This document shows, piece after piece, positions 3,470-10,700 of a DNA stretch of 64,000 nucleotides. Made by a program: the position numbers. Source of the DNA: Perna viridis (taxonomy: Eukaryota); contig CM074525.1 in NCBI GenBank assembly GCA_037379345.1, positions 24,979,840 to 25,043,839 on the forward strand, given 5' to 3'. The first letter of the stretch is position 1; each line of letters begins with the position of its first letter.

Positions 3470-4666
3470 GTCTTATTTTATTATTATTATTTTTTTATAA
3501 ATTTGTATTGTTTTGTTGTTGTTGGTGTTGACGTAATGGAGCTTTGTTGTTTTCTTCCTTATAGTCGCCAGACACATTGAAAAAAAGTTGTATATATTAT
3601 ATCATAGTTCAAGTTTCAAATCAAAGCCGTTTCTGTACTATTCAGTGTGCAAAGAACCAAGTTTACACAGTGGTGAAAGACGGACAACATTCATTTTTTT
3701 CTTGTACACGAAAACACATTTTATGATTTTCTGAAAAAGGAGGGGGTTTGATTGGTCAAAATAAGACCCCACTCCAGTGAACGGATTCGCCAAAAACCCT
3801 TTTCTGACTGGTTAAATTGTTAATGCTTCCTTTTTTTTATTTTGTTTTTGTTTTTGTTTTTGTTTGTTTGTTTGTTTGTTTTGTTTTTGGTGTTCTATAT
3901 TTTCAAAATCTACTTTATACAGCCTCGTTACATATTGGTGTCAGCTAGGGTATTCGGGGTCAAGGTTCCCACTATCCTTCTCTCGGATCATAACAATGAC
4001 CTACTGATTTCACTCAATTATTCGATACAATGTCTTCTCTTTATGTAATTCCTGGGTAAATATTATGGAGAAAACCCGGTTAGTATCTGATATGGGGGTC
4101 AAGGCCGCTTGTTTTATCGGGTATAAAGAGCCAAAATCTGAATGCCTGATCAGAAATCGATATTTAATGTACAACCTTTCGTTCATCATGTACATTTCAC
4201 GTTTTGAAGGAATTTTAGGATATTTTCTATTGCTTTGTGCAAGTCTAAGCCTGGCTAGTAAGTTCGTAAAATATTACACAATTTTTGAATAGAAAGCCAG
4301 ACAAGAACATGCATATAAGACTATATCAAACAAAAGTCGTACTTTTCATGATCATCAAATGATACATATTGTTTTGTTCATTTTTTTATTCTGGTGCTGT
4401 TTTTTTTGGGGGGTTTTTTTGGTGTTTTTTTTTTATTATTTTTTGTGGTTTTTTTTTGGGGGGTGTGTGTTTAAAAGTTATTACACCGTTTCATTCCTGG
4501 AACCGTTATCTTATGTGATTCTTGATTATATTTTGCCGACAGCGAAACTGATTTTTTTTTATGTCAGAAAATTAAACTGAGGGTGAGTTTGTTTTGAAAA
4601 CAGGAAGCCAATGGACGCAGACGAGTGAAAAAAACCGTGGGCGATACATTAGAATAATTAATGTAA

Positions 4667-4759
<93 letters not shown>

Positions 4760-7700: not shown

Positions 7701-10700
7701 AAATCAATGAACAAATGCAGTGACGGCGGTGTATATCTACATGTACCTATTTTGTATTTTTCAGGTTGACTCGTGTTTGATGAGCTGTGATCAGACCGAA
7801 AATGACTGCTCCGTTGTCTGTCTTGTAATTGCATGTATCTGTTTCATCGTCTTTGTAGGTTTTATGAATTTGTTTGACCTCTTTGTAACGTTTGTCAGTC
7901 TTGTAATTTTATGTGAGACCATAGTGATATATGATTTTGTTGTTAACGTTATTCCTCGTTCATCGCAACGTTATATTTCTTTTTTTTAATTTATAAATTT
8001 TATCAGACATGTTACGTTTTTAATCACGTGCCCATTATGGAAAATAAAGAGTCAAAACTTTGTTGGGGGCAGAGACTGTAACAACAAATAAAATATAACA
8101 CATTCAAGGAAAAATGCTTACTCTTTGGGCCTAAGATGTCGGTGTGCTCCCCAGTATTACGATTTCAGTGTGCACCCCAGTTTTAAGATTTCAGTGTGCT
8201 CCCTTGGCTGTGGATGTTGGTGTGCTCCGTGGTATTAAGATATCGGTGTGCTCCCTTGGCTCCTCTGGTTTAATTTGGTGTGCTCCCCAGGTTTAAGTTG
8301 TCGATGGATTCCCTTGGCTGTGGATGTTGGTATACACCCTGGGTTTATGATGTCAGTGTGCTCCTTTGGCTGAAGTTGTTGGTGTGCTTCCAGTTGGGTG
8401 ATTTGCTCCCTTGACTGTGGAAGTTGATGTGTTCTCTGGGTTTAAAAGGTTGGTGAGCTCCTTATGCTGTGGATGTTGGTATGCTCACTGGGTTTGTAAG
8501 ATGTCAGTATCCTCCATATGCTGTAGATGTTGGTGTAATCCCTAGGTTTAAGATGTCGGTGTGCTCCCTTGGCTGTGGATGTTGGTGTGCTCCCCATGTT
8601 TAAGATGTCGGTGTGCTCCCTTGGCTGTGGATGTTGGTGTGCTCCCCATGTTTAAGATGTCGGTGTACTCCCTTGCCTGTGGATGTTGGTGTGCTCCCCA
8701 TGTTTAAGTTGACGGTGTGTTCAATCGGCTGTGGATGTTGGTGTGCTCCCTGGTTTAAGATGTCGGTGTCCTCCCTATGCTGTGGATTTTTGTGTGATCC
8801 CTGGGTTTATTGATGTCTGTGTGCTACATCGGTTTTAAGGATCTCTGTGCTCCATTGGATTTAGATGAAGCTGTGTACCCCGGGGTTTTGAGAACTCAGT
8901 GCTGACTGCATAGGGATTCATATGACGGTGTGCTATCTAGATTTTTAAATGATGGGATCTTCACCATGCATTAGATTGTCCACTGTCTATTTTTTGTATG
9001 TTTTCTTTTAGTTTTTGTATGTTGCTTATTGTATCTATCCAGTTTGTATTTACTTTCATTTTCGTATTTTATAATCCTTCAACCGTGAATTTCGGGAGAA
9101 ATTCCTTCATCTGTGACTTTGGGAGAATCATTTCGTGAAAAATTCATATTTATAGATGGATTGTTTGTGCCAAATACATATTTTAGTGGCATAATTTACC
9201 CACATATATTTCTTTCATCGATTTCTAAGTGTATACCTACACTTAGAAATCGATGGTAAAGGAAAACTATTGACCAAACTTTACGACAAACGCGATGACT
9301 GCATTCCAAATTGTCAACTTTCCTTTCATCTGCGGCAACATCCCTTCAGCACCTGCGTATGGAGTGTTCATATCACAACTGATACGTTATGCCAGAGCTT
9401 GCCGAAACTACGCAGACTTTTTGTATCGCGCTAGAACTCTAACAAATAGGCTTCTGGAACAGGTTATGTTGCTACAAGATTGAAGTCATCACTACAGAAG
9501 TTTTATGGTCGTCATCATGAACTCGTGGATCGTTATGGTGTATCCATCTGCACCATGAAAACTGATTTATTCAACGGGTCATAGTTTTCCTTTCCCCGTT
9601 TATCTACCCCGGACTTGACTTTTTATGAGCAACTCGGCAGGTGTTTCTAGAAAAGCAGAGGACGCTTACCCTACCGGTGCACCTGGTCCATGCTCCCAGT
9701 TTTTAGTGGAGTCCGAGTTGCTCATTTGCTTTTGTTACTTTTTTTTGTATGTATGATTTTATTTACTTCATATTCTTTGTTGTGTATGTCTGTTTTGCAT
9801 GTCTGGTCTTTGTCCCTGGATTACATTCTTTTGATTACTTGATTACTCTTTCAATTGCTCCAGTATAGAAAATTTCTTTGCAACAGACGATATATGTTCG
9901 TGATTCAATTAATATATACGTAGAACATGGTAAGTTGTGGGCAAGAAATTATCCTCTAACAGAGGCGGATAAAAATTGAAGAACTGAAGAGTGTGTTGAC
10001 TAGCCAAAGATGGGACGTACATTGTCAGGCTTCAGTGGTTTTCTTTTTCGACTAACATTTTTCCGAGAAAAAAAAACGGGGAGGGTCTGTGGGGCCGGGT
10101 CGGGATCTCTCTTTGTCTATCTGAATCTTATAGGTGAAATCAAACGCCGAGTCTACTGACGAGTTACAAGTATCAGATCTTAAATGTAATGGTTCGTGTG
10201 TTCTAGTACATCAGTAAATATTTAAATATTTTTGTGCATTGCTCTTGAAAAAAGCAAATCAAATTGTAAACATTGGAAACCTTTTGAAATTAAACACTGT
10301 GTATTTTACAACTGACGTCCCAGTATCAGGAAGAAGGAAGAGAAGTAAAAAATATCAGTTCATATTTTCTTTTACTTTAAGTGTCGATTACACATCTTTA
10401 TCCTACTTCATTTTTAAAAGCTGGCTCAAGCAAATGCTTAATTTAATGTGCAAATGGGTTCATCCTTTAGAGGAACAAACGTAAGGGCGGCTAAAAAGGG
10501 CGCTAAATTGACACAAACGGATATTTTTCCATTAATATCCTCGGTTTTAGACAAAATGGAATATTAAAGTGTTAATTAACAGGAAACCCTTGGACAGAAC
10601 ATATTGTTGGGGACACCTTTAAGATAGGAAACTAATGTTAACTTGTGTTTCGTTGGTTAAAGAGGTAATTATTTCTTTTCAGTATAACATTATGAATAAA

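Follow-up and report, generated by a model that had tools for sequence, protein, structure and literature searches.

A candidate orphan gene of Perna viridis that may encode a small secreted protein with a CxxxC motif near each end

Does a locus that matches no catalogued family encode a protein and, if so, is its product a precursor to be cut into peptides or a protein that works whole? The question is raised by positions 4188 to 7769 of a stretch of Perna viridis DNA (NCBI GenBank assembly GCA_037379345.1, contig CM074525.1, positions 24,979,840 to 25,043,839 of the forward strand). This stretch of 64,000 nucleotides (nt), referred to throughout as the window, is AT-rich (GC ~0.36) and contains no N. 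A preliminary description of the window had proposed that four exons encode a secreted precursor of 152 residues, in which two CxxxC motifs, a Lys-Arg (KR) site and a final Gly would allow an insulin-like release of two disulfide-linked chains. The analysis presented here leads to a different emphasis. We favour, with some reservation, a gene of three or four exons, without a relative in the libraries searched, whose product is a small secreted protein stapled at its ends; that this protein leaves the cell, forms the stapling disulfides and has its role outside are all predictions from its sequence.

Signals of a protein-coding gene

When the locus was traced base by base, every element of the four-exon model was found where the preliminary description had placed it (Table 1). 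The phase compatibility and length that had been claimed also hold, as the four coding parts (70+33+351+5 nt) add up to 459 nt, equal to 152 codons and a stop, and introns 1 to 3 all lie in phase 1. The TATA box said to precede the gene is present as TATAAAG, one of ten copies on the + strand of the window, and transcription would start about 30 nt past it, within an initiator-like sequence whose distance from the TATA box at this locus matches the canonical expected spacing. The ATG at 4188 has an A at -3, and the in-frame ATG at 4167 lies in a weaker context; use of the latter instead would lengthen the protein by seven residues to 159, the frame being open from 4008. The structure had been reported to escape the open reading frame (ORF) track and, indeed, the ORF listing contains only the raw frame 6767-7222.

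Exon 1 encodes MYISRFEGILGYFLLLCASLSLA, which on inspection resembles a signal peptide in having Arg at position 5, a hydrophobic core of ~15 residues, Ser at -3 and Ala at -1. The signal peptide of the preliminary description is thus borne out at the level of inspection, and no other first exon of this kind was found in the window scan described below. The predicted cleavage point, at which the signal peptide would be removed, coincides with the phase-1 junction of exons 1 and 2; phase-1 introns at the end of the signal peptide are common among secreted proteins. Exon 2 is translated as VIKTPSESWK, flanked by the split codons for K and H, and its skipping would leave the frame intact.

Both strands of the whole window were scanned for an ATG with a basic residue in the first eight, a hydrophobic core of 10 residues and GTRAGT 15-40 codons on. 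The single site returned was exon 1, with TATAAA upstream; simulated sequence gave a mean of 0.45 sites per 64 kb and, in 40 runs, none accompanied by TATAAA. A weak exon-1-like match near 52212 was dropped, its ATG being only 14 nt past TATAAAG and followed by no gene-like structure. The equivalent scan for internal exons (pyrimidine tract and YAG, an open frame of 20-400 nt, then GTRAGT) found two sites in the window, compared with a simulated mean of 2.33, and one of the two is exon 2. This exon lies between exons 1 and 3 on the same strand. The one frame in which it is open is that set by exon 1, and its 33 nt bring exon 3 into the frame in which that exon is read. Between 3500 and 8500 the + strand contains two copies of GTAAGT and three of TTTTCAG, and all five are sites of the model, in the order donor-acceptor-donor-acceptor-acceptor.

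The GC content of exon 3 is 0.387, against the lower values of introns 1 and 2 (Table 1). Its frequency of G at codon position 1 (G1) is 0.328, versus 0.196 +/- 0.038 in simulated ORFs, and its heterogeneity chi-square is 21.8, versus 7.5 +/- 4.0; neither value was attained by any of the 193 simulated ORFs. When exon 3 was compared with the 75 other real ORFs of at least 80 codons in the window, none matched its G1 or its difference between G1 and the frequency of G at codon position 3 (G1-G3). Its chi-square was matched by five, comprising two in a tandem array at 56.3 kb, the two strands of a Gly-rich frame at 25.3 kb and the frame 55712-55966. In the 31 codons of the exon-3 frame that lie upstream of the acceptor G1 drops to 0.129, and thus the coding signal starts at the proposed exon boundary. 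On these sequence signals, the locus is probably a real protein-coding gene.

The predicted protein and its comparison with known families

The segments LVQCLRNCQ and NWYCHNNCW picked out in the preliminary description are present in exon 3, where they supply the motifs CLRNC and CHNNC, and the cysteines of this exon are confined to residues 11, 15, 104 and 108. Because the one Cys of exon 1 sits in the signal peptide, the mature protein has exactly four, an even number. If four Cys are placed at random, the probability of a twin CxxxC is 0.00085, and that of an equal spacing of whatever length up to 10 is 0.0079; among 218 null ORFs none has exactly four Cys arranged as twin CxxxC, and two have at least two CxxxC motifs. 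The twin CxxxC is a non-random feature and, given its improbability under chance, the pattern looks designed. The acidic, Asn/Glu/Ser-rich spacer that had been described between KR and CHNNC is likewise there: 59% of exon-3 residues 29-99 are N, S, E, D, T, G or Q, and most have a predicted local distance difference test score (pLDDT) <50. The mature product, of ~129 residues with one CxxxC near each end, would be net acidic and is predicted to be mostly disordered.

In the part of the literature represented by PMC7191063, twin CXXXC motifs with C1-C4 and C2-C3 bonds staple antiparallel helices, as in plant alpha-hairpinins, scorpion kappa-hefutoxins and cone-snail toxins. By analogy, the P. 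viridis protein may work like a cystine-stapled hairpin. The same C1-C4 and C2-C3 disulfides would form between its two motifs, the N- and C-terminal segments would be tied together with an acidic loop of 88 residues between them, and the protein, uncut and stapled at its ends, would have its function outside the cell. The exon-3 protein shares with the cystine-stabilised hairpins of PMC7191063 the arrangement XnC1X3C2XnC3X3C4Xn with no other Cys, and both are made as precursors that carry a signal peptide, a predicted one in the present case. The animal hairpin toxins, however, have 22-27 residues, and in the solved examples that PMC7191063 cites C2 and C3 lie 11-13 residues apart, whereas the gap here is 88. 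Furthermore, the precursors of plant alpha-hairpinins are multi-module or vicilin-linked, in contrast to the single motif pair of this protein, and the two arms of the known hairpins are helices, whereas in exon 3 the mean helix penalty rises from 0.39 in the N-terminal segment to 0.73 in the C-terminal one, the structural model is of low confidence and no chain in the PDB is similar. We do not file the protein among the cystine-stapled hairpins, because of its gap of 88 rather than 11-13 residues and because its second motif is unlikely to be helical. The staple that the preliminary description assigned to the paired motifs is only partly upheld, in that the pair is non-random and of a kind known to staple helices (PMC7191063, for the peptides treated there), while the C-terminal motif forms helices poorly, which makes a staple between two helices, as in the known peptides, doubtful at that end.

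Other families with comparable features were considered. The small Tim proteins are mitochondrial, with a twin CX3C, a short gap between the motifs and no endoplasmic reticulum signal peptide; they were rejected as relatives on the grounds of the signal peptide, the 88-residue gap and the lack of a Pfam match, the twin CX3C alone being in common. Mollusc insulin-like peptides, as set out in the relevant part of PMC5996578, have an A chain with CxCCxxxCx8C and a B chain with Cx(9-14)Cx11C, eight Cys in total; a CxxxC occurs there as part of the A-chain pattern. The exon-3 protein resembles insulin- and relaxin-type precursors in layout only, with a signal peptide, a Cys-containing N-terminal segment, a basic site, a middle that looks dispensable and a Cys-containing C-terminal segment. 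It differs from them in having four Cys, a single dibasic site in place of the two that flank the connecting peptide, and no match to the Pfam insulin family. Membership of the mollusc insulin-like group was consequently rejected (Cys at 11, 15, 104 and 108 only, one dibasic pair, no Pfam family), and the earlier remark that the Cys pattern departs from that of insulin stands, two CxxxC motifs contrasting with the eight-Cys mollusc pattern of PMC5996578. A parallel in kind is oyster Cragi-CCCGS which, according to the section of PMC8398477 that covers it, is a small secreted Cys-containing product of unassigned function found in no other species. Cragi-CCCGS, however, has eight Cys in 42 residues and transcript support, whereas this locus, with four Cys in ~129 residues, is known from sequence alone.

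The library searches took the exon-3 protein as query rather than the joined four-exon product; the 23, 10 and 1 aa of exons 1, 2 and 4 offer too little sequence for the libraries and were compared within the window only. The homology search among proteins of near length yielded one protein from five candidates, P0003, which has 130 residues and is 100% identical. P0003 is a raw genomic ORF and not the spliced product, because it starts inside intron 2 and ends with GMF. The search for shorter proteins gave no candidate, and HMMER, run over 1.84 billion cluster representatives without restriction on length, recovered P0003 alone. At E up to 10 there were no matches to Pfam families, insulin included, or to PDB sequences. 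A tblastn search of the window detected no further copy, with lowest non-self E values of 2.8 (exon 3), 1.5 (exon 1) and 4.9 (exon 2), and the best look-alike in the ESM Atlas (0.85) was an unnamed zinc-finger fragment cluster under the lead level. The two 9-residue motifs had no match in full-text literature, supplements and figures being outside its coverage. The statement in the preliminary description that the product is not recognised as a named mollusc neuropeptide is thus sustained across Pfam, the PDB and the libraries, P0003 excepted. Library coverage was controlled with the transposon-like ORF 18881-19258 (+), itself without a Pfam match, which found 43 relatives among 66 candidates at 35-84% identity in ENA/JGI contigs; scattered DNA of related animals is thus represented in the libraries, in which no annotated proteome of them was seen. 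Orphan, as used here, means that there is no relative in the libraries searched, in which invertebrate DNA is sporadic.

The locus and its surroundings

The coordinates of the gene model, the motifs of its product and examples of the minisatellites of the window are collected in Table 1.

Table 1. Elements of the candidate gene and selected repeats, in positions of the window
Feature	Position	Strand	Remarks
TATA box, TATAAAG	4122..4128	+	30 nt before A 4152 of TCAG; 60 nt before ATG 4188
Initiator-like TCAGAAA	4150..4156	+	putative transcription start at A 4152, 30 nt past the first T of TATA
Upstream in-frame ATG	4167..4169	+	seven codons 5' of 4188; T at -3; alternative start
Exon 1, coding part	4188..4257	+	predicted 23-residue signal peptide and first base of split codon; donor GTAAGT at 4258
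Intron 1	4258..6553	+	phase 1; GC 0.296
Exon 2	6554..6586	+	33 nt; phase 1 in and out; acceptor T10CAG, donor GTAAGT
Intron 2	6587..6860	+	phase 1; GC 0.288
Exon 3	6861..7211	+	main coding exon, 351 nt; 116 whole codons, 6863-7210; acceptor TTTTCAG, donor GTATGT
N-terminal CxxxC (CLRNC)	6893..6907	+	good helix propensity; helix in low-confidence model
KR	6941..6946	+	sole dibasic pair; 12 residues past first CxxxC; followed by Leu-Leu
Acidic Asn/Ser/Glu-rich middle	6947..7159	+	exon-3 residues 29-99; net charge -6
KSSR	7079..7090	+	only candidate monobasic site between spacer and C-terminal motif
C-terminal CxxxC (CHNNC)	7172..7186	+	poor helix propensity; beta hairpin in low-confidence model
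Intron 3, or 3' untranslated region (UTR) if unspliced	7212..7764	+	phase 1; GC 0.362; read-through stop 7220-7222; AATAAA 7574
Exon 4, coding part	7765..7769	+	predicted splice after acceptor TTTTTCAG; GT completes Gly codon, then TGA
AATAAA, two copies (8043, 8087)	8043..8092	+	GT-rich stretch after the first
Minisatellite, 34 bp x 9	21945-22262		
Minisatellite, 40 bp x 10.6	34307-34730		
Minisatellite, 33 bp x 24	49009-49789		
Minisatellite, 29 bp x 17.7	63041-63566		

Two of the introns contain repeats of their own. Intron 1 harbours a perfect (AT)44 microsatellite at 4669-4757, and intron 3 a hairpin at 7331-7431 with 47-nt arms that are 85% complementary and a 7-nt loop; the hairpin has no second copy in the window and could be a foldback or an element resembling a miniature inverted-repeat transposable element. 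A hydrophobic open frame of 92 codons at 7711-7989 (+) overlaps the last exon and the 3' UTR. Directly past the putative polyA signals of the gene, a satellite array with a period of 52 bp and ~13 copies begins (8132-8825), and it is this array that accounts for the rise in GC and the excess of T between 8001 and 10000.

Further downstream, from 16000 to 64000, the window is crowded with minisatellites of 25-50 bp period, and several long ORFs, including 28347-28951 and 56300-56693, are translations of tandem arrays. No match to Rfam was obtained across the 64-kb window, and none of the 49 window ORFs scanned against Pfam reached the curated cut-off. The open frame of 113 codons at 25328-25666 (+), rich in Gly, Tyr, Asn and Ser, has a G1 of 0.310, a scaled chi-square of 30.9 and no Pfam match, and could represent either a cryptic repeat or one exon of a further secreted protein of low complexity. 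At 184 codons, the frame 13310-13861 on the - strand is the longest in the window and is also without a Pfam match; its C-terminal half appears to resemble the tail of a non-long-terminal-repeat retrotransposon ORF2.

Weighing the readings and their meaning

Several observations count against an end-stapled secreted protein encoded at this locus. The length of the open frame is unremarkable alone, because a frame of at least 151 codons occurs in 35 of 100 first-order Markov simulations of the window, and the thresholds of the exon-1 and internal-exon scans were set with the candidate already seen, so that the scan figures are generous. Support from conservation is nil, since no homologue was found. 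The language-model recognition value of the protein is 1435, versus the 2300 reached by 91 of 100 proteins of known families, a measure that is silent on whether the gene is real. With regard to the fold, structure prediction had been suggested in the preliminary description as a check, and single-sequence AlphaFold2, applied to exon 3 alone, was unconfident (pLDDT 37.7, predicted template modelling score 0.25); its model places a helix over the first CxxxC and a beta hairpin over the second. The helix penalties reported above point the same way, the C-terminal segment being rich in Asn and aromatic residues, and the C2-C3 gap is far above that of the solved hairpins that PMC7191063 cites. A complex prediction that paired the N-terminal 30 with the C-terminal 40 residues of exon 3 scored 0.02, the mark being 0.34 (controls not folded), and by the rule of the method speaks neither for nor against pairing.

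It could be argued from the first group of these observations that there is no gene, and that strings which by chance look like splice sites, a TATA box and a signal peptide have been joined to a frame that is open by chance in DNA rich in AT and repeats. AT-rich DNA readily encodes hydrophobic stretches, the ESM Atlas recognition value falls where shuffled sequences are common, and a lack of relatives, of Pfam and PDB matches and of a confident fold is what such a frame would display; moreover, the surroundings, crowded with minisatellites, contain no gene that Pfam recognises among the 49 ORFs scanned. It should be emphasized, however, that several independent signals agree in order, strand and phase, that coding-type periodicity is restricted to the exon part of the frame, and that the twin CxxxC has a p of ~8.5e-4. 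We consider the absence of a gene unlikely.

If the gene is real, its coding frame has three candidate ends, and the C-terminus may be Gly, GMF or longer. Read-through of the last donor gives a protein ending in GMF at the stop codon 7220-7222, and the AATAAA at 7574 could serve such an unspliced mRNA. The predicted splice to 7765, with the AATAAA copies at 8043 and 8087 downstream, gives the Gly-stop end; of the pyrimidine-rich acceptors downstream, its own, TTTTTCAG, ranks in the best three. A splice from 7211 to an acceptor near 7857, which is as pyrimidine-rich (0.74) as that at 7763, would append a hydrophobic tail of 43 residues, over which the frame is open, and the same gene would then encode a protein anchored in the membrane, its twin-CxxxC domain lying outside the cell. 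The residues of this tail are also seen in the raw frame 7711-7989. The acceptor at 7763, however, comes first and has the stronger T5CAG form, T-rich DNA commonly gives hydrophobic frames, and the tail is without independent support; we regard the anchored form as very improbable. The final Gly of the preliminary description is thus present in the spliced model and is one of three possible ends, because the GMF read-through and the 7857 acceptor are possible as well.

The choice of end bears on the proposal that the product is a prohormone. According to this proposal, a convertase would cut at KR and before the C-terminal segment, the spacer would be lost, the terminal Gly would be converted into an amide and a two-chain, disulfide-linked peptide would result. 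The signal peptide, the twin CxxxC and the acidic disordered middle are all in place, KR follows the first motif at a distance of 12 residues, and the spliced model ends in Gly-stop. The context of KSSR, in which a basic residue precedes the Arg by four positions and Glu follows, fits a monobasic-cleavage rule that Veenstra reportedly formulated in 2000; by the same rule, Leu-Leu after KR is said to be an ambiguous context for cleavage. Although the KR site is certainly present, a single dibasic pair is what chance supplies (1.03 expected, and at least one in 64.6% of shuffles), and the C-terminal side of the spacer has KSSR only and no dibasic site. The Gly-stop depends on a predicted splice into a coding exon of 5 nt, the least secure splice of the model, with GMF-stop as the read-through product and the AATAAA at 7574 available to the unspliced mRNA. 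No conserved peptide can be demonstrated with no relatives in the libraries searched, and the Cys pattern is unlike that of the mollusc insulin-like chains described in PMC5996578. The oyster regulatory-peptide candidates of PMC8398477 do include, among those it lists, species-restricted Cys-containing secreted peptides; as such peptides, of unknown role, are reported there from oyster ganglion transcriptomes, a signalling or defence role is possible for the P. viridis product. The two-chain amidated peptide of the preliminary description nevertheless has nothing specific in its favour, KR being at chance level and a second dibasic site lacking, and processing as a prohormone appears improbable. 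Slightly more so is its fully specified form, in which cuts at KR and KSSR would leave two chains of ~40 residues joined by two inter-chain disulfides, the second amidated at its C-terminal Val. Were it true, insulin-like processing logic would be carried by the cystine staple of helical hairpins and not by the insulin fold, and the product would be a new animal signalling peptide.

The reading that we favour, an intact secreted protein stapled at its ends, probably places the locus within a known broad kind, that of lineage-restricted secreted proteins. Because invertebrate genomes commonly contain small secreted proteins specific to a lineage, the locus alone would not greatly surprise a specialist. 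A twin CxxxC with its motifs 88 residues apart, however, puts a known cystine staple to unusual use and, if the ends were stapled and the loop removed, the product would represent a new class of two-chain peptide. If real, this short multi-exon gene can be recognised through its intrinsic signals alone, and would extend the set of taxonomically restricted secreted protein genes by a further member that ORF-based tracks and the libraries searched have missed.

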